Positions 1,434 to 31,951 of a DNA stretch of 32,000 nucleotides are shown here, piece after piece; within the stretch, counting starts at the first letter, position 1, and each line of letters starts with the position of its first letter. Made by a program: the position numbers and the translations under genes. The notes beneath the pieces are model-generated. The model saw only the letters and a program-made list of their open reading frames with translations, did no database searches and was not told the DNA's origin. Source of the stretch: an uncultured Candidatus Saccharibacteria bacterium (GTDB lineage: Bacteria; Patescibacteriota; UBA1384; XYA2-FULL-43-10; 1-14-0-10-43-13); contig CAZIYE010000001.1 of the NCBI GenBank assembly GCA_964543385.1, positions 639,274-671,273 on the forward strand, given 5' to 3'.

Positions 1434-1683
1434 TTTTCTCCTTAAACCGTCAATAGAGTGATTAGAGTTTAAATTTGAACACTAGTCAGTAAATGTATGC
1501 TAAGTATTTGTTATTCATCTCTGAATATGTTATTACAAAGTTAATCGGTTTTAATACTCCTGTCCTGCCCTTGGGGTACAATAAAAGGAATCCGATCTCG
1601 AAAATCAAGGGCCCCAAACTATTCATAATCCCTTATGGGAGGTCGGGTTGAATAGTCTATCAATCTAACATCTTTGGAGAGTT

Positions 1684-1887
1684 ATGGACGACAAAGAATT
1701 CAACAAAGCCTTCGATGAAGCTACAAAGAAGAAAATGCTTGAGGAGCCAGACATCTGGTGGAAACCACGAAGACACAGATGGGATGAATGGGGCTCGCCG
1801 GTAGGATTGTCTCTCGGTTGGACACTATTTATAGTTCCACTTGGCGTTTTCCTTTGGCTACTTCATCTTGCTGGACTCATAGGCTAG
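1684..1887 (+). CDS. Small hypothetical membrane protein (67 aa)
   Basis: GGAG lies 4 nt before the ATG. Charged N-terminus, then hydrophobic LSLGWTLFIVPLGVFLWLLHLAGLIG. A perfect terminator palindrome follows immediately. Confidence 0.6.
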   Translation: MDDKEFNKAFDEATKKKMLEEPDIWWKPRRHRWDEWGSPVGLSLGWTLFIVPLGVFLWLLHLAGLIG

Positions 1888-1893
1888 AAACAT

Positions 1894-1928
1894 AAAATCG
1901 TCCCGATATATATCGGGACGATTTTATT
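1894..1928 (+). terminator. Rho-independent terminator
   Basis: Perfect 32-nt palindrome aaaatcgtcccgatat/atatcgggacgatttt followed by T-rich sequence. Confidence 0.85.
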
Positions 1929-1952
1929 AGGTAGTGCTCCAGAATTATCAGT

Positions 1953-1981
1953 TTGACTTTTTTCTTATTATCTGTTATTAT
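1953..1981 (+). promoter_or_regulatory. sigma70-type promoter upstream of csp (TTGACT-N17-TATTAT)
   Basis: Hexamers and 17-nt spacing read directly. This leaves a leader of about 80 nt, as is usual for cold-shock genes. Confidence 0.5.
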
Positions 1982-2061
1982 CAAATAGAATAATTTTGGG
2001 AAAATAGTCGATTTTCTCGGATAGATTTAATTTGATAACAACATAAACAATCATAAACACT

Positions 2062-2259
2062 ATGACAGGTACAATCAAAAAATTGACAGACAAGGGCTTT
2101 GGCTTTATTACTTCTCCAGAGTTGGGAAAAGATTTATTTTTTCACAAAAACTCTTGTGTAGATAATTTTGACACTTTCGCCGAAGGAAACGAAGTTTCTT
2201 TTGAGTCGGAAGATTCTCCAAAAGGACTAAACGCAGTCAATGTTACATTGGTTAAATAA
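2062..2259 (+). CDS. Cold-shock domain protein (CspA family, 65 aa)
   Basis: RNP1-like KGFGFI and RNP2-like LFFH. Size and overall pattern are typical of the CSD family. Confidence 0.9.
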   Translation: MTGTIKKLTDKGFGFITSPELGKDLFFHKNSCVDNFDTFAEGNEVSFESEDSPKGLNAVNVTLVK

Positions 2260-2277
2260 CCGATATCCATTGTCCAA

Positions 2278-2312
2278 AAAAAACTCCTAGCATAAAAACT
2301 AGGAGTTTTTTG
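2278..2312. terminator. Rho-independent terminator after csp
   Basis: aaaaaactcctag / ctaggagtttttt stem flanked by an A-run and a T-run. Confidence 0.85.
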
Positions 2313-2333
2313 TATTGGATAAGTAATATTAAT

Positions 2334-2365
2334 TGGCTCTACACAACGGCCGAAGTTCGAGTTAT
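2334..2365. repeat. Copy D of the 32-nt motif TGGCTCT-N11-GAAGTTCGAG-TTAT
   Basis: Same 7+11+10+4 architecture as 4730-4761 and 5834-5865. It also sits just downstream of a terminator hairpin. Confidence 0.5.
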
Positions 2366-2403
2366 AATTAGTTGAATGCAATGAGATAGACAAAATAGAA
2401 ACT

Positions 2404-3393
2404 ATGAATAAAAAAAATTTTAGCAAGGGAGTAGAAGGACTTGTCGATCCAATAACTGTTGGGTCGCTTCATTTTATCCAACCGTTTAATCAGTTGTTGC
2501 CAAAGAAAATTCAGAAAAAAGTTGTTCAATCATCATCAAAAAAGACCTCCTATATGGGATTTGTAGTCGAACCATATAGCTTTTTTCTGTTTTACGAAAT
2601 TTCTGATTTAGAAAAAGCCACAAATTTATTGCCTGATGGTTTCAAAATGATAAAAACAAAAGTATTTGAGGAAGATGAGCCTAAATATTATTGCGTTTTT
2701 GGCTGTTTTCGGGCTCATACCAGTGCATTTTGGGGTGTGAGAGCAGAATTTTACATTATTGCAGAAGATAAGCAAACTGGATTACTGAGCTGGATAATAG
2801 TTGACTATGATACTAATACTATTAGTTATGACAGCGGGAATGGATTGCGCTCGCCCAATAGCAGCCGTGCCGTTGTAACAATTAATCATCGCGGAATGCT
2901 TTTTGTTGATATTAAAAGAGACGACGATAACAGAGAGCTGGTTTGCGACGCAAATATCGAAAAAGGTGAGATGACGAAGCTTGACCAAAGGTTGTGGCTG
3001 GAGGGAAATCTCTCGATTGGATATGGTCGTGTTTTGTCAGAAAATGATGCCGATATTTTTTCTCTTAAGTTTGAGCCACTTGAGGTTGAGAAAGCGTTGA
3101 AAATCCCAACTGATAGTTTGGAGATCGAATCGAATACTTGGTATCCTGGATTATTTAAATCATTACCCTCGCAGATAGTTTGCTTTCCTTATGCACAGCA
3201 TTTCGTTTCTGATAGTCCGGGGCATTCCAGTAATCTTAAAAACAGAGACGAACTAATCGCAGCTGAGGAGAATATAGATTTCTCTAAGTTAGAAGTTTTC
3301 TCTACCAAGTCATTCAAGGTAATGTTTATAGTCGGATCGATAGTATCTTTTCTTGTCACCATGACTTTTTTCCTTCTCTGGTTGCTCAAATAA
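2404..3393 (+). CDS. Hypothetical protein with C-terminal TM anchor (329 aa); possible acetoacetate-decarboxylase-like/DUF2071-like fold
   Basis: Long ORF with C-terminal hydrophobic FKVMFIVGSIVSFLVTMTFFLLWLL. The stretch LLPDGFKM...YYCVFGCFRAHTSAFWGVRAEFYIIAED recalls ADC-like/DUF2071 proteins; that fold call is weak. Confidence 0.55.
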   Translation: MNKKNFSKGVEGLVDPITVGSLHFIQPFNQLLPKKIQKKVVQSSSKKTSYMGFVVEPYSFFLFYEISDLEKATNLLPDGFKMIKTKVFEEDEPKYYCVFGCFRAHTSAFWGVRAEFYIIAEDKQTGLLSWIIVDYDTNTISYDSGNGLRSPNSSRAVVTINHRGMLFVDIKRDDDNRELVCDANIEKGEMTKLDQRLWLEGNLSIGYGRVLSENDADIFSLKFEPLEVEKALKIPTDSLEIESNTWYPGLFKSLPSQIVCFPYAQHFVSDSPGHSSNLKNRDELIAAEENIDFSKLEVFSTKSFKVMFIVGSIVSFLVTMTFFLLWLLK

Positions 3394-3622
3394 TTTGGCC
3401 AGTGTTTGGACCAAAAAAGGCCATCTGGGGATCAGTATTTTTATGTCTCTACACCGTGTTAGAAGTTGGAACTAGTTCTCAGCTGGCAATCGAATGAATA
3501 TCAACTAAAAGGCTTAAAAGTGAGAATAATAGTATTAAATATCAGCAAAATCTCAGTCTGTTTTTTTTGCATATTCGTGTTAGCATGTTGTTATGATATT
3601 AGGAAATTAAAAGGAGTCGAAA

Positions 3623-5774: not shown

Positions 5775-5865
5775 CAGTTCGAGTCCAAAGTGGAGGAAAC
5801 AAAAAATAACTAGTCCTAGACTAGTTATTTTCATGGCTCTGCACAGTGAACGAAGTTCGAGCTAT
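5775..5865. repeat. Module B: CAGTTCGAGTCCA + terminator hairpin (5803-5831) + TGGCTCT-N11-GAAGTTCGAG-CTAT
   Basis: The 13-mer CAGTTCGAGTCCA is identical to 6318-6330 and lies at the same 24-nt offset from ACAAAAAATAACTAGTC. The right end contains the NUDIX stop codon. Confidence 0.7.
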
Positions 5866-6272
5866 TGTAGCTTGATTTTTCTATCCAATACCATTTCAAA
5901 GAAAGTTTTGGTGGCTGTTTTCAATGGGAGATCCATTATTTCTTTTAGTGAGAACCAACCGAATGATGATGCTTCGTTCTTATCTAAAACAACTTTTTCA
6001 TCTTTAATTAACTCTGCTTGCCAAAATGAGAGACTTTTTACTTTATAGTCTGCAGGAAGGGTGATTAGTTTGTTCAAAGATTTTACTCTTAGTCGTGTCT
6101 CTTCAAAGACTTCTCTTTCAACTGATTCTGTTTCATCTTTGTCTAGTGAATTTATCCTTCCGTGGGGAGGAGACCACAATCCAGTCGATGGCTTTCGATT
6201 ATCCTCTAAAAGCAATATTTTGTTGTCAGGGTTCTTGATGATTACTACAACTCCATGTTCTGTTGAATCCAT
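5862..6272 (-). CDS. NUDIX hydrolase (136 aa)
   Basis: Nudix-box-like GRINSLDKDETESVEREVFEETRLRV. AAGGAG lies upstream of the ATG. Confidence 0.8.
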   Translation of the reverse strand: MDSTEHGVVVIIKNPDNKILLLEDNRKPSTGLWSPPHGRINSLDKDETESVEREVFEETRLRVKSLNKLITLPADYKVKSLSFWQAELIKDEKVVLDKNEASSFGWFSLKEIMDLPLKTATKTFFEMVLDRKIKLQ

Positions 6273-6317
6273 TATCTCCTTTACATTAATAAATTAATCT
6301 TATCAATTTAGGGCGAC

Positions 6318-6377
6318 CAGTTCGAGTCCAGTCTGATTTATACAAAAAATAACTAGTCTAGGACTAATTATTTTTAT
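6318..6377. repeat. Module C: CAGTTCGAGTCCA + terminator hairpin (6345-6375) abutting the 3' end of tRNA-Asn
   Basis: Same left flank and hairpin arms as A and B. The loop is inverted (TAG versus CTA) and there is one arm mismatch. The right flank is the genuine tRNA-Asn CCA end. Confidence 0.7.
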
Positions 6378-6452
6378 TGGCTCCCTGAGCTGGACTCGAA
6401 CCAGCAACATCTTCGTTAACAGCGAAGCGCTCTGCCATTGAGCTATCAGGGA
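6378..6452 (-). tRNA. tRNA-Asn (anticodon GTT), CCA encoded
   Basis: Hand fold of the reverse complement: acceptor TCCCTGA/TCAGGGA, D-loop CAATGGCA, anticodon stem CTTCG/CGAAG with loop CTGTTAA, T-arm GCTGG-TTCGAGT-CCAGC, discriminator G, CCA. 75 nt. Confidence 0.9.
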
Positions 6453-6769
6453 ATAAATTGTTATTTTTCAAACAATGTTTTGATAAAATTTCTGCCAGCG
6501 TGGGATTTTAAATATTTTTCTCTTCCCAACGCTTCTTTTCTATTATCAAATCTTTCAGTATAAAAAATTTTCCATGGCTTGTATTTTCTGCTGAAATGAT
6601 TCGATCCAGAATTGTGTTCAAGTAATCTTTTTTCAAGGTTATCAGTTACTCCAGTATAAGTCTTTGGCGATTTTTCACTGATTAGAATATAGATATAACT
6701 ATCTGCCATTGCCCGTCCTTGCTGATTAATCAGCCAAGGCCGAGGTCTCGGCTCGCTTCGCGAGTCGGA
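6453..6769 (-). mobile_element. Putative ~320-nt GIY-YIG mini-insertion in the tRNA-Asn 5' region
   Basis: Bounded by the direct 12-nt repeat TCCCTGATAGCT (tRNA nt 1-12). Carries its own structured leader/SD and the nuclease ORF. Mobility is inferred, not shown. Confidence 0.4.
6461..6709 (-). CDS. Small GIY-YIG nuclease superfamily protein (UPF0213/YhbQ-like, 82 aa)
   Basis: YIYILISEKSPKTYTGVTDNLEKRLLEHNSG...PWKIFYTERFDNRKEALGREKYLK fits the GIY-YIG pattern. AAGGA lies 6 nt upstream of the ATG. The stop is 8 nt before tRNA-Asn. Confidence 0.85.
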   Translation of the reverse strand: MADSYIYILISEKSPKTYTGVTDNLEKRLLEHNSGSNHFSRKYKPWKIFYTERFDNRKEALGREKYLKSHAGRNFIKTLFEK

Positions 6770-6781
6770 AGCTATCAGGGA
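6702..6781 (-). repeat. Split duplicate of tRNA-Asn nt 1-12 (6781->6770) and nt 13-22 (6711->6702), separated by a 58-nt GC-rich triple-hairpin insert (6712-6769)
   Basis: AGCTATCAGGGA occurs at 6770-6781 and 6441-6452; TCTGCCATTG occurs at 6702-6711 and 6431-6440. Insert hairpins: ctcgc-ttc-gcgag, gccgag-gt-ctcggc, ccttg(c)tgatt/aatcag(c)caagg. Confidence 0.8.
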
Positions 6782-6802
6782 AAATGTATTTTTCTAATAG
6801 CA

Positions 6803-6831
6803 ATTCTAGCAAAAAAAATGACTTCTGTAAA
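6803..6831 (-). promoter_or_regulatory. sigma70-type promoter TTTACA-N17-TAGAAT upstream of the displaced tRNA 5' fragment
   Basis: Read on the minus strand: tttaca-gaagtcattttttttgc-tagaat, about 20 nt upstream of TCCCTGATAGCT. It would drive fragment + GIY-YIG + tRNA-Asn as one transcript. Confidence 0.5.
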
Positions 6832-6843
6832 TAAACCTATCTA

Positions 6844-6939
6844 CTAGGATGAATAAGCTAGGAGTATGGCAGATATAAACATGTCATACCAGTTGACTCT
6901 TTTGCGGTCAGAGAGATGGTTTGCCTCAAAAGCATTCAT
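6844..6939 (-). CDS. Candidate 31-aa small protein (MNAFEANHLSDRKRVNWYDMFISAILLAYSS)
   Basis: Strong SD (gaAAGGAGtaagATG). Very short, with no homology recognisable by eye. Confidence 0.3.
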   Translation of the reverse strand: MNAFEANHLSDRKRVNWYDMFISAILLAYSS

Positions 6940-7031
6940 CTTACTCCTTTCTTCGGTAATGACTTTGGAGACCTATTTTACCTCTTGGTCAATAGATGTC
7001 AAGAAAAATATATAGATATTACATCTCTCTA

Positions 7032-7080
7032 TTGACATACAATCCATCTAGGATTATAGTTCAAATGTTATTGAACTATA
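7032..7080 (+). promoter_or_regulatory. Promoter TTGACA-N17-TATAGT overlapping a 10-6-10 inverted repeat (TATAGTTCAA-atgtta-TTGAACTATA), probable ArsR-family operator
   Basis: Hexamers at 7032-7037 and 7055-7060. The perfect inverted repeat at 7055-7080 starts in the -10 element, 18 nt before the arsR-like ATG. Confidence 0.65.
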
Positions 7081-7098
7081 AATATTATAGTAGATATT

Positions 7099-7371
7099 AT
7101 GAATAATAAAATAGAAGAATTATCTTTTTTGATAAACGAAAACAAGCTAAGAGTTATCTCGGCAATCTACAAATGTACTAAGGATGTCTGCGCTTGCAAT
7201 TTAGTTGATAATCTTGGCATGCCTAAGAACCTTCTTTCGTATCACATAAAAACTTTGAGAGAAGCAGGATTTATAGAAGAGGTTAAATGTGGTCGTTTTA
7301 AAAATTATTGCATATCGAAAAATAAAATTAATAGAATCAAACAAATCTTAGAATTAGTTGAAATGTTATAA
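7099..7371 (+). CDS. ArsR/SmtB-family metalloregulator (90 aa)
   Basis: Winged-HTH pattern NLLSYHIKTLREAGFIEEVKCGRFKNY. A CxC pair in DVCACNLVD lies at the position of the ArsR ELCVCDL metal site. Confidence 0.8.
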   Translation: MNNKIEELSFLINENKLRVISAIYKCTKDVCACNLVDNLGMPKNLLSYHIKTLREAGFIEEVKCGRFKNYCISKNKINRIKQILELVEML

Positions 7372-27036: not shown

Positions 27037-27112
27037 TGGTGGACCTGGCAGGGATCGAACCTGCGACCAAGCGGTTATGAGCCGCCTGCTCTAACCACTG
27101 AGCTACAGGTCC
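27037..27112 (-). tRNA. Elongator-type tRNA with CAT anticodon (Met, or Ile2 if lysidinylated), CCA encoded
   Basis: Hand fold: acceptor GGACCTG/CAGGTCC, D-stem GCTC/GAGC (C11:G24), anticodon stem GGCGG/CCGCT with loop CTCATAA, T-arm GCAGG-TTCGATC-CCTGC, A73, CCA. 76 nt. Confidence 0.9.
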
Positions 27113-31874: not shown

Positions 31875-31951
31875 TGCGGGGTGGAGCAGCCTGGTAGCTC
31901 GCGTGGCTCATAACCATGAGGTCGTTGGTTCAAATCCAACCCCCGCTACCA
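31875..31951 (+). tRNA. Initiator tRNA-fMet (CAT), CCA encoded
   Basis: Hand fold: 1:72 mismatch (T1xT72) above GCGGGG/CCCCGC, A11:T24 in the D-stem, anticodon loop CTCATAA, T-arm GTTGG-TTCAAAT-CCAAC, A73, CCA. 77 nt. Closely resembles E. coli tRNA-fMet as I remember it. Confidence 0.85.

Follow-up and report, generated by a model that had tools for sequence, protein, structure and literature searches.

What is an 82-aa GIY-YIG nuclease gene doing inside a tRNA-Asn gene, between two copies of that gene's 5' end, one of them split by a GC-rich hairpin insert? The question is raised by 32 000 nt (the window) of contig CAZIYE010000001.1 (GCA_964543385.1), from an uncultured Candidatus Saccharibacteria bacterium. 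All coordinates are those of the window, the feature is read on the minus strand, and related loci or DNA stretches compared with the window carry L numbers. The arrangement is probably due to a mobile and selfish nuclease-plus-hairpin cassette of 329 bp that targets tRNA genes and regenerates them. It appears to belong to a large and apparently undescribed class, in which the gene of a minimal SLX1/Ssn-like GIY-YIG protein and its cognate GC-rich hairpin are embedded together at either the 5' or the 3' end of tRNA genes. No description of GIY-YIG cassettes inside tRNA genes was found in the literature, of which subscription journals were thinly covered, and this is not proof of novelty.

Two exact direct repeats, both colinear with the tRNA, define the structure of the locus (Table 1). 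The longer one has 13 nt (6441-6453 and 6770-6782, spacing 329) and comprises tRNA nt 1-12 together with one leader base, position 6782 being the last base of the leader. The shorter one has 10 nt (6431-6440 and 6702-6711) and comprises tRNA nt 13-22. An analytic estimate of chance occurrence gave approximately 3e-5 for a given 12-mer within 500 nt and 1e-4 for a colinear 10-mer within 100 nt, with a joint value of the order of 1e-9. A preliminary description made from the sequence alone had reported the tRNA-Asn, the open reading frame (ORF) and the colinear repeats of 12 and 10 nt; ARAGORN, Rfam, the ORF call and an exact repeat search together confirmed all of them and their positions. The ORF has its ATG (6709-6707) within the upstream copy of CAATGGCAGA and its stop codon 8 nt before the tRNA; one piece of this spacer, TAACAATTTAT, also precedes the tRNA in L010. 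Because a terminator scan of the window detected no terminator-like site between ORF and tRNA, co-transcription of the two is plausible. The same scan, which is biased towards G+C, missed the AT-rich terminator hairpin at 6340-6375. The locus was also found in an independent assembly (L001) and is therefore not an assembly artefact. Its tRNA-Asn is the only one in the window, and a self-search of the 32 kb detected no second GIY-YIG gene and no second copy of the hairpin module (HP3).

Relatives of the locus were sought through the neighbouring glutamate dehydrogenase (GDH) gene, and two stretches (L130 and L129) encoded a GDH 78 % identical to that of the window. L130 has the same helix-turn-helix (HTH)-GDH neighbours, promoter, leader (TTTACAGAA..TTTTTTTTGCTAGTAT) and AT-rich terminator hairpin, its leader runs straight into tRNA-Asn, and no GIY-YIG ORF was present in its 6.5 kb. 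As judged from this alignment, L130 is an empty tRNA-Asn site, the state for which a search among relatives had been set beforehand as a test. Compared with this empty site, the tRNA gene of the window has 329 bp more, inserted between nt 12 and 13 and made up of HP3, nt 13-22, the ORF, 8 nt and nt 1-12; this length equals the repeat spacing. The last 12 nt of the cassette (arm A', 6441-6452) replace the displaced 5' end, and a complete tRNA is therefore rebuilt directly behind the nuclease gene. The promoter is kept at the empty site and is therefore the native tRNA promoter; as the original 5' end stays beside it, this promoter would now drive the leader, arm A, HP3, the nuclease mRNA and the tRNA. 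The preliminary description had proposed both the promoter and its takeover by the nuclease. A promoter scan recovered the former, and conservation in relatives, including at the empty site, bears out the latter. On the evidence of the aligned loci, comparison with the orthologous empty site shows an insertion after which the tRNA was rebuilt and the cassette came under the native promoter.

L129 has the same promoter, followed by TCCCCGATAGCTC (tRNA nt 1-13), a 16-nt perfect palindrome (TCCGCCAGCTGGCGGA), GGCAGAGCG (nt 17-25), an ORF and an intact tRNA-Asn. Its GIY-YIG ORF differs from the others (30-44 % identical). One locus was found in three allelic states among close relatives, empty in L130, filled in the window and filled by another cassette in L129. 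Synteny was broken or the contig too short in further GDH relatives (P0018 and P0019). Two further observations were made on these alleles. The tRNA-Asn of L130 (3531-3606, minus strand) has an 8-nt D-loop, CAATTGGCAGA, with one extra T located 3-4 nt from the insertion point, where the filled alleles have CAATGGCAGA; this could be a target resistance polymorphism or just drift. In L129, the gene of a 501-aa large serine recombinase (1730-3235, plus strand; with Resolvase and Recombinase domains) extends into the 3' portion of the cassette-bearing tRNA-Asn (3194-3268, minus strand) and stops there; the opposite end of this tRNA gene appears to be used by another, unrelated mobile element.

Table 1. 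Features of the cassette-bearing tRNA-Asn locus, listed in the direction of transcription (minus strand)
Feature	Position	Strand	Basis
Promoter TTTACA-N17-TAGAAT, TG-extended -10	6803..6831	-	promoter scan, 10/12 matches with TG; homologous in L130 and L129
Original tRNA leader, transcribed 5' flank, 21 nt	6782..6802	-	aligns with the leader directly before tRNA-Asn in L130
Outer arm A, displaced original tRNA nt 1-12, TCCCTGATAGCT	6770..6781	-	exact repeat of 6441-6452
HP3 hairpin module, 58 nt, GC-rich	6712..6769	-	three hairpins inside a closing stem; kept in 11 sequences
Inner arm B', copy of tRNA nt 13-22, CAATGGCAGA	6702..6711	-	exact repeat of 6431-6440; holds the ORF start codon
GIY-YIG nuclease gene, 82 aa, single-domain, SLX1/UPF0213/Ssn-like	6461..6709	-	ATG start; Pfam PF01541
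Spacer of 8 nt, CAATTTAT, stop codon to regenerated tRNA	6453..6460	-	read directly
Intact regenerated tRNA-Asn(GTT)	6378..6452	-	ARAGORN; Rfam tRNA, 70.2 bits
AT-rich terminator-like hairpin and T-run after the tRNA, native, outside the cassette	6340..6375	-	inverted repeat 6345-6358/6362-6375; kept in L130

Homologues of the window protein came from metagenomes of Patescibacteria (candidate phyla radiation, CPR). At every locus with enough DNA (L002, L003, L004, L006 and L007) the gene was located directly upstream of tRNA-Asn(GTT), with the same lead-in of a tRNA 5' piece, a three-hairpin insert and CAATGG... with the start codon, and the flanking genes differed from locus to locus. The order arm A, HP3, arm B', ORF and tRNA-Asn was present at nine distinct loci, with at most one mismatch between the equivalent of arm A and the local tRNA in the other HP3-type loci examined. 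The inner arm was kept at 5-13 nt and the homologous proteins begin M-A-(D/E/K/H). Some ORFs run into the tRNA: the stop codon is supplied by the TAG of tRNA nt 8-10 in L003 and L129, and in L072 and L012-L014, too, the ORF overlaps the tRNA.

The family was then sought more widely by a scan of one genome per species with its conserved C-terminal peptide as query. This returned 10 loci, from Berkelbacteria, Saccharibacteria, Curtissbacteria, Levyibacteriota, Bacteroidota (two), Neomarinimicrobiota (two), a metagenome-assembled genome (MAG) labelled Gammaproteobacteria and an unclassified MAG. All 10 had a same-strand tRNA gene within ~420 nt (Asn, Gln, Arg, Lys, Ser or Met), and in six the tRNA overlapped the end of the matched region or ORF or began 6-22 nt after it. 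Beyond the ORF, most also had a piece of tRNA gene interrupted by a GC-rich hairpin, and three of the 10 were tandem arrays. The preliminary description had looked to other GIY-YIG copies beside duplicated tRNA pieces as a check on its proposal, and many were found. The family, as sampled here, is patchy across phyla (CPR, Bacteroidota, Neomarinimicrobiota and the one MAG labelled Gammaproteobacteria), is associated with six tRNA species and is not a one-off.

Exact-match mapping resolved two mirror layouts. The 5'-end form consists of the outer tRNA piece, the hairpin, the inner piece, the ORF and the intact tRNA. It was found with tRNA-Arg in L014 (nt 1-9, a 28-nt hairpin and nt 10-22) and L012, with tRNA-Lys in L013 (nt 8-22, a 22-nt hairpin and nt 31-42) and in the second cassette of L006 (nt 1-11, a 29-nt hairpin and nt 21-38). 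The 3'-end form consists of the intact tRNA, the ORF, the inner piece, a hairpin in the T-loop and the outer piece, which runs into the native 3' flank; this form was found with tRNA-Ser (L015 and L018) and tRNA-Met (L016). Hairpins on both sides of the gene were seen in L004 only. Tandem units were identical at 343 of 343 positions in L010, 303 of 303 in L015 and 289 of 302 in L018, with intact ORFs in each, and two different cassettes stand in tandem in L006 and L007. There were also decayed older copies, namely a partial HP3 upstream in L003 and several 3' remnants in L016. These comparisons of loci show one protein/hairpin clade in different tRNAs and at different tRNA ends, together with tandem arrays and decayed copies. 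Three different tRNA-Asn alleles occur within L004 and several within L009, and the tRNA-Asn genes of the window and L003 differ at 2 positions though the two loci share no neighbouring genes. This suggests that the tRNA sequence travels with the cassette. The surroundings of L006 hold, in addition, an AbiEii-family toxin gene with a small upstream partner (2753-3614, minus strand) ~1 kb from the double GIY-YIG/tRNA-Asn locus, and several mobile or defence genes cluster round this tRNA.

Traces of the same layouts were visible in protein databases. A profile search of 1.84 billion representatives returned 6,234 cluster representatives at E<=1e-10. N-terminal pseudo-extensions were present in 62 of the top 150 proteins (P0137-P0286), and some of these are visibly translated tRNA DNA (for example P0137, ...DPRFES..., and P0164, AEWSNAPVLKTG...GSNPSPSA) or a translated GC hairpin (P0138, PPRLDRLVEAGR). 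Some gene calls read through into the tRNA at the C-terminus (for example P0156, ...EVAEWSKAARC), and six two-domain proteins among the top 150 are read-throughs of tandem cassettes.

Whether the hairpin belongs with the tRNA or with the protein can be judged from cassettes that share one and differ in the other. HP3 cassettes formed a protein clade of at least 50 % identity in the identity matrix. The proteins of L013 and L017 are 64 % identical and both adjoin a TCCGGC...GCCGGA hairpin. Those of L014 (tRNA-Arg, 5' end) and L015 (tRNA-Ser, 3' end) are 57 % identical and have a common hairpin, CCCGCCTGACCG...TCAGTCGGGCAGG, which lies on opposite strands relative to the tRNA; read along the hairpin strand, both loci have the order outer piece, hairpin, inner piece, then ORF and intact tRNA. 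All hairpins of the family have a YCCGSC...GSCGGR flavour. Over the loci aligned, these data show that hairpin type tracks the protein clade and not the tRNA, which argues for the hairpin being what the protein recognizes and for target choice not being encoded by the protein-hairpin pair alone. They also argue for the hairpin acting at the DNA level, because as RNA it would be part of the 5' untranslated region (UTR) in one form and the reverse complement, in the 3' UTR, in the other. A role as RNA only was rejected for this change of strand and side between the 5'- and 3'-end forms.

The preliminary description had also noted that the 58-nt insert folds into three hairpins. Taken alone, the window insert was modest against shuffled sequences (z=-1.2 for 96 nt as RNA and z=-2.8 for 69 nt as DNA). 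The fold is substantiated by its conservation, since the module was kept in 10 further sequences with compensatory changes in two of the hairpins. The closing stem P1 pairs CCGAC (6764-6768) with GACGG (6713-6717), with one A-A mismatch in the window, and encloses P2 (6752-6764), P3 (GCCGAGACCTCGGC, 6739-6752) and P4 (6717-6739), the last of which pairs the AAGGA Shine-Dalgarno sequence (6716-6720) in the window copy. Alignment of the 11 copies (the window and 10 from related loci) gave the consensus TAGCT-Y-CCGTC-TC[P2]GA-GCCGAG-RY-CTCGGC-[P4]-GACGG-R-CAATGG. P1 and the P3 palindrome were invariant in sequence across these copies. P2 and P4 varied in sequence and length among loci, yet formed a hairpin each time through compensatory changes (for example CTGATTAATCAG in the window and CTAATTAATTAG in L002), and RNAalifold reported compensatory pairs in P2. 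Folded as single-stranded DNA (ssDNA), five of 10 copies formed a four-way junction, with z scores from -1.7 to -6.1. Three positions co-varied between two states, T/AC/G or C/GT/A, in the alignment of window 6700-6782 with the 10 loci, namely the nucleotide that follows TAGCT, the two central nucleotides of P3 and the nucleotide that precedes CAATG. The P3 centre is Watson-Crick complementary to both flanking bases, and both subtypes occur within L004. Watson-Crick contacts would fit this covariation, and shared ancestry is an equally good explanation of the two states. Inversion of the whole module between the two subtypes was rejected, as P2 and P4 do not swap.

No similarity of the insert was detected by an Rfam search of 6200-7100 in evalue mode (E<=10), which reported the tRNA alone. 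A pattern scan of metagenome contigs for the HP3 core gave 110 matches, of which 106 were chance matches in high-GC DNA and four were genuine. All four genuine matches stood in the context TAGCT(Y), insert and CAATGG followed by a GIY-YIG ORF, at tRNA-Asn nt 12/13. HP3 is therefore not a dispersed repeat or miniature inverted-repeat transposable element (MITE) but a fixed component of the cassette. The alignments indicate that it is integral to the cassette and conserved, varies in type with the protein clade and is no incidental second insertion. An origin as P-nucleotide-type palindromes made during repair was rejected because the hairpins are conserved families.

The 82-aa protein matched PF01541 with 63.8 bits (cut-off 22.6, E=1.9e-17). 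Across 14 homologues the catalytic residues Y18, G20, R28, H32 and E64 were invariant and Y7 was present in at least 90 %. The AF2 model (pLDDT 93.8) has the order E-E-H-H-E-H-H, a three-stranded sheet flanked by helices. Its best Foldseek matches were UPF0213 protein BH0048 and the SLX1 nuclease domain (TMq ~0.7; including PDB 6seh and 7cq4), and a profile search of PDB gave UPF0213 at E=4e-12. The modelled fold, nearer to SLX1 (a branched-DNA endonuclease) and UPF0213 than to UvrC or I-TevI, can be called SLX1/UPF0213-like with high confidence. No DNA-binding module (NUMOD, HTH or Zn finger) was found in the 82 aa, in which only PF01541 and a sub-threshold T5orf172 match were detected. NCBIfam gave only the group I intron endonuclease model TIGR01453, at 21 bits against a cut-off of 56. 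There were no relatives in PHROGs or in viral contigs, and matches in PADLOC were sub-significant only. The best annotated relatives by tblastn were alphaproteobacterial mini GIY-YIG proteins (35-41 % identity).

Among characterized systems the closest is Ssn/NTS. Ssn are single-domain GIY-YIG proteins of cd10448; SsnA of Neisseria meningitidis, with 94 aa, binds its hairpin repeat (NTS/SRM) only as ssDNA and cuts ~3 nt upstream, with Y6, Y17 and E64 essential (Chenal et al. 2025, PMC11893778). Ssn genes are typically flanked by hairpins in an insertion-sequence-like arrangement, and those of Neisseria are viewed as domesticated and as modulating transformation (PMC11893778). Nowhere does that paper mention tRNA. 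The NTS-flanked Azospirillum homologue (L132) served as stand-in for SsnA in the comparison. Both systems have a single GIY-YIG domain of ~80-100 aa (82 aa in the window, <150 aa) without a DNA-binding domain, adjoining a GC-rich hairpin of 20-50 nt that has polarity. The spacing of the Tyr/Tyr/Glu residues is near-identical (Y6/Y17/E64 in SsnA and Y7/Y18/E64 in the window), and the architecture is insertion-sequence-like. The hairpin co-varies with the protein there and its type tracks the protein clade here. The start of HP3, CGTCTC followed by a palindrome and then C, recalls the HGTCWY-palindrome-C of the SRM. The differences are that the cassette hairpin is single, on one side and undispersed, that it always lies inside a duplicated tRNA fragment, that the cassette interrupts and rebuilds a tRNA gene, and that HP3 is a four-way junction of three hairpins and not a simple hairpin. 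L132 itself (1376-1884, Azospirillum lipoferum plasmid AZO_p3) holds a 97-aa GIY-YIG gene in the sufB-sufC spacer, flanked by four near-perfect Neisseria-type NTS copies (CGTCATCCCCGCGAAGGCGGGGATCCAG) in inverted pairs, with no tRNA nearby. By its layout it is a textbook Ssn-type, insertion-sequence-like insertion inside an operon.

Other systems resemble the cassette in part. UPF0213/SLX1-like proteins (BH0048, EF2693 and Escherichia coli YhbQ) are the best sequence and structure matches and share the same minimal domain, the window family differing by its own C-terminal signature, REKYLKSHAGRKFIKKLF; no function, tRNA linkage or hairpin partner of UPF0213 proteins was found in the literature searched. 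Phages and islands that integrate into tRNA genes also bring a replacement for what they displace, which keeps the tRNA functional, and leave a partial tRNA copy at the far end. They differ in using tyrosine or serine integrases, usually at the 3' half, in being kilobases long and in having an uninterrupted direct repeat, whereas the window cassette is 329 bp long, has no integrase, is located at the 5' end and has a left-over copy split by a hairpin. IS200/IS605 and REP/RAYT systems likewise combine a small gene with GC-rich hairpins recognized in ssDNA and cleave a few nt from the hairpin foot; the sequence that flanks their left cleavage site is the same as that of the target. Their HUH Y1 transposases act through covalent intermediates, however, whereas GIY-YIG enzymes are hydrolases, and IS200/IS605 elements have hairpins at both ends and make no target duplication.

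These likenesses allow a mechanism to be proposed for the cassette. The leader, arm A, HP3, nuclease mRNA and tRNA would form a single transcript, from which RNase P would release the tRNA, and pairing of the ribosome-binding site within P4 of HP3 would restrain translation and keep nuclease levels low. As in Ssn/NTS, the nuclease may bind its hairpin in ssDNA and nick a few nt 5' of it, at the junction of outer arm and hairpin; an Ssn-type cut 3 nt upstream of HP3 would fall at the junction of tRNA nt 12 and HP3. The two tRNA-matching arms could then provide the homology with which the cassette integrates or excises, through a Campbell-type crossover in the outer arm, or enters an empty tRNA gene by gene conversion. 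The order hairpin, inner arm, ORF, outer arm is the expected product of such a crossover from a small circle with outer arm, hairpin and inner arm, and it is also what synthesis-dependent repair would copy from a filled allele. If the crossover fell in the inner arm instead, the tRNA would be left interrupted by the hairpin and the product would be lost, since survival requires an intact tRNA; this would account for the usual placement of hairpin and functional tRNA on opposite sides of the ORF. The 13-nt direct repeats, by recombining with each other, would give back the empty site exactly. The junctions expected are the leader directly onto TCCCTGATAGCTCAATGG for the empty site and CAATTTAT-TCCCTGATAGCT-TCCGAC for the circle.

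Several points weigh against a mobile, tRNA-regenerating cassette. Nuclease activity, substrate (ssDNA, double-stranded DNA or RNA), cut site and the chemistry of mobility are taken by analogy, and integration must rely on host recombination, repair or ligation, GIY-YIG enzymes being hydrolases only. The regenerated tRNA would stay a target unless protected; the tandem arrays may be a trace of such re-cutting. Only one empty site was found, and L130 could represent precise loss and not a never-invaded state. Assembly could have created the perfectly identical tandem units of the MAGs, though not the 96 % identical pair of L018. Hairpin-bearing tRNA remnants occur downstream of the intact tRNA in L009, L004b, L013 and L017, which a simple model does not predict, and L011 is without a hairpin. 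The layout of L009 (1735-1960) is also not accounted for by simple insertion: a 12-nt inverted repeat (TTTTTAGCAATT / AATTGCTAAAAA) flanks its intact tRNA-Asn, which is followed by GTAGCT-HP3-CAATGG..., a near-full-length tRNA-Asn pseudogene of another allele with HP3 at nt 12/13, and its ORF is preceded by TCCCGAG only. The parallel with Ssn/NTS is limited too. The published SRM pattern, HGTCWYN(0-2)YYVSBRHN(0-5)WNVSBRGN(0-2)RNCYNB, which gave four matches in L132 as positive control, had no match in the window and 20 related loci except for a single, fortuitous-looking one in L072, with its register off the stem. HP3 is unlike NTS in its single copy, one-sided position and lack of dispersal, and the family profile separates Ssn-type proteins (52-55 bits for the NTS-flanked Azospirillum and Sinorhizobium homologues) little from UPF0213 (49 bits).

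The preliminary description had favoured a homing-type element that regenerates its target. Regeneration stands on the empty site and the rebuilt tRNA; homing in the classical sense is doubtful, as the protein is a minimal SLX1/UPF0213/Ssn-like domain and not of the I-TevI type. Classical free-standing homing would have the 82-aa protein alone make a double-strand cut in the intact tRNA-Asn near nt 12/13, with repair copying the cassette from a filled allele and the hairpin being either a by-product whose effect is to remove the target from the left-over copy or a 5' UTR element for translational control or stability. GIY-YIG homing endonucleases are well known, and one of them, T4 SegB, is encoded in a tRNA gene cluster and cuts within the tRNA gene region (PMC2330249). 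The cassette shares with Seg proteins and I-TevI the GIY-YIG domain, a selfish gene, presence/absence polymorphism at a conserved target and probable co-conversion of the tRNA, since tRNA alleles seem to travel with cassettes (the three alleles of L004, and the window and L003). Pairing of the Shine-Dalgarno sequence by HP3 would fit as well. Seg and Tev enzymes, however, have 200-250 aa with a linker and a DNA-binding domain, whereas the window protein is a bare catalytic domain with none of the modules listed above and an SLX1-like fold. Seg genes are intergenic, split or regenerate no tRNA and have no cognate hairpin, and the known Seg/Tev examples are from phages and organelles, not from CPR or Bacteroidota chromosomes. 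Two proteins that are 57 % identical and have a common hairpin occur in different tRNAs, one at each tRNA end and with the hairpin on opposite strands, which is hard to reconcile with site specificity encoded by the protein; the tracking of hairpin type with protein clade suggests hairpin recognition instead. An insertion conferring immunity needs no conserved sequence, yet P1 and P3 are invariant, and the regenerated tRNA would still be cleavable. Homing by the protein alone is doubtful on these grounds, and this explanation was considered unlikely.

Guidance by nucleic acid was also considered, with the hairpin as a protein-binding scaffold and the two tRNA-matching arms as a bipartite guide, in ssDNA or 5' UTR RNA, that pairs with a strand of the tRNA gene; the GIY-YIG domain would cut opposite the hairpin at a branched junction, and the arms, not the protein, would set the target. 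The arms do match the local tRNA exactly or with one mismatch even though protein identity has dropped to 40-70 %, one and the same protein/hairpin clade occurs with different targets, and arm B' is present nearly everywhere, though simple homing has no need of it, and is intact even where non-coding (L014, L013, L015 and L129). SLX1-like enzymes, among which are the PDB matches 6seh and 7cq4, cut branched DNA, and Ssn cleaves hairpin stems assembled from two oligonucleotides, which its authors termed 'DNA-guided cleavage' (PMC11893778). Yet remnants or duplications of the target would account for the arms equally well. The first base of arm A is always tRNA nt 1 or lies 1-2 nt before it, and the arm is continuous with the native leader, as expected of a displaced end and not of a designed guide; B' is as short as 5 nt in L010. 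An RNA guide is unlikely to be general, as the hairpin changes strand between the 5' and 3' forms and Ssn does not bind RNA. Guidance by nucleic acid was given a low probability. A stable host arrangement, in which a housekeeping UPF0213-type gene is inherited vertically in an operon with the tRNA and the leader pieces and hairpin are processing or regulatory signals, is very improbable. It would agree with an arrangement kept down to ~58 % protein identity, with intact ORFs and conserved catalytic residues, and with the lack of relatives in viral contigs or PHROGs. It is largely refuted by the empty orthologous site, and further opposed by a different cassette at the same site in close relatives, by flanking genes that differ at every locus, by six tRNA species and both tRNA ends, by tandem arrays and decayed copies and by the patchy occurrence across phyla.

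Three other classes of element were rejected. There is no ribozyme by Rfam, the insertion is at nt 12/13 and not in the anticodon loop, and an intact tRNA follows downstream, which excludes a group I intron, a tRNA intron or a split tRNA. The 329-bp insert encodes the GIY-YIG ORF only, with no tyrosine or serine recombinase, and is not an integrase-mediated element with att sites. Nor is it a hairpin transposon of the IS200/IS605 type, as it has a single hairpin module and no ORF for an HUH Y1 transposase.

If the mobile cassette reading is correct, it describes a widespread and unrecognized type of bacterial mobile element which, with ~300-350 bp, an 80-aa nuclease and one hairpin, would be among the smallest autonomous-looking elements known. 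By entering and rebuilding tRNA genes such an element would gain a strong constitutive promoter, homology across species and protection from imprecise deletion. The Ssn principle of a hairpin and its nuclease would be tied to a defined genomic target, and thousands of gene calls without a role, annotated 'GIY-YIG nuclease family protein' or UPF0213-like, would be given a context. The cassettes would also explain annotation artefacts, namely N-terminal extensions and 'two-domain' GIY-YIG proteins derived from tRNA or hairpin DNA, and partial tRNA calls. tRNA alleles may be swapped horizontally with cassettes in CPR bacteria with single-copy tRNAs. If the arms help to choose the target, the protein would be a candidate for a very compact programmable nuclease for ssDNA or branched DNA; were the guided explanation true, tRNA genes would be the safe harbours of a very small system for DNA cleavage and integration that is guided by homology and naturally retargetable.

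The remaining observations concern the surroundings of the locus. The preliminary description had cited, as weak support, an inverted copy of a 10-mer at 6866-6875; this copy exists, but a search of the window with the same 140-nt query gave 15 other 10-mer matches, and the copy is put down to chance. The two tRNA-Met genes of the window (27037-27112, minus strand, and 31875-31951, plus strand) have neither a GIY-YIG gene nor a hairpin nor a partial duplicate beside them. A reverse transcriptase (RVT_1, 327 aa; 1459-2442, minus strand) is encoded directly downstream of GDH in L134, a GDH relative at 70 % identity, and could belong to a retron or a group II intron. Downstream of the window tRNA-Asn, its T-arm sequence, GTTCGAGTCCA(G), recurs as two inverted copies of 12 and 11 nt (6320-6331 and 5777-5787, plus strand), which form no T-arm and lie outside the cassette, and the copy at 6320-6331 is partly kept at the empty site of L130 (TTCGAGTC).

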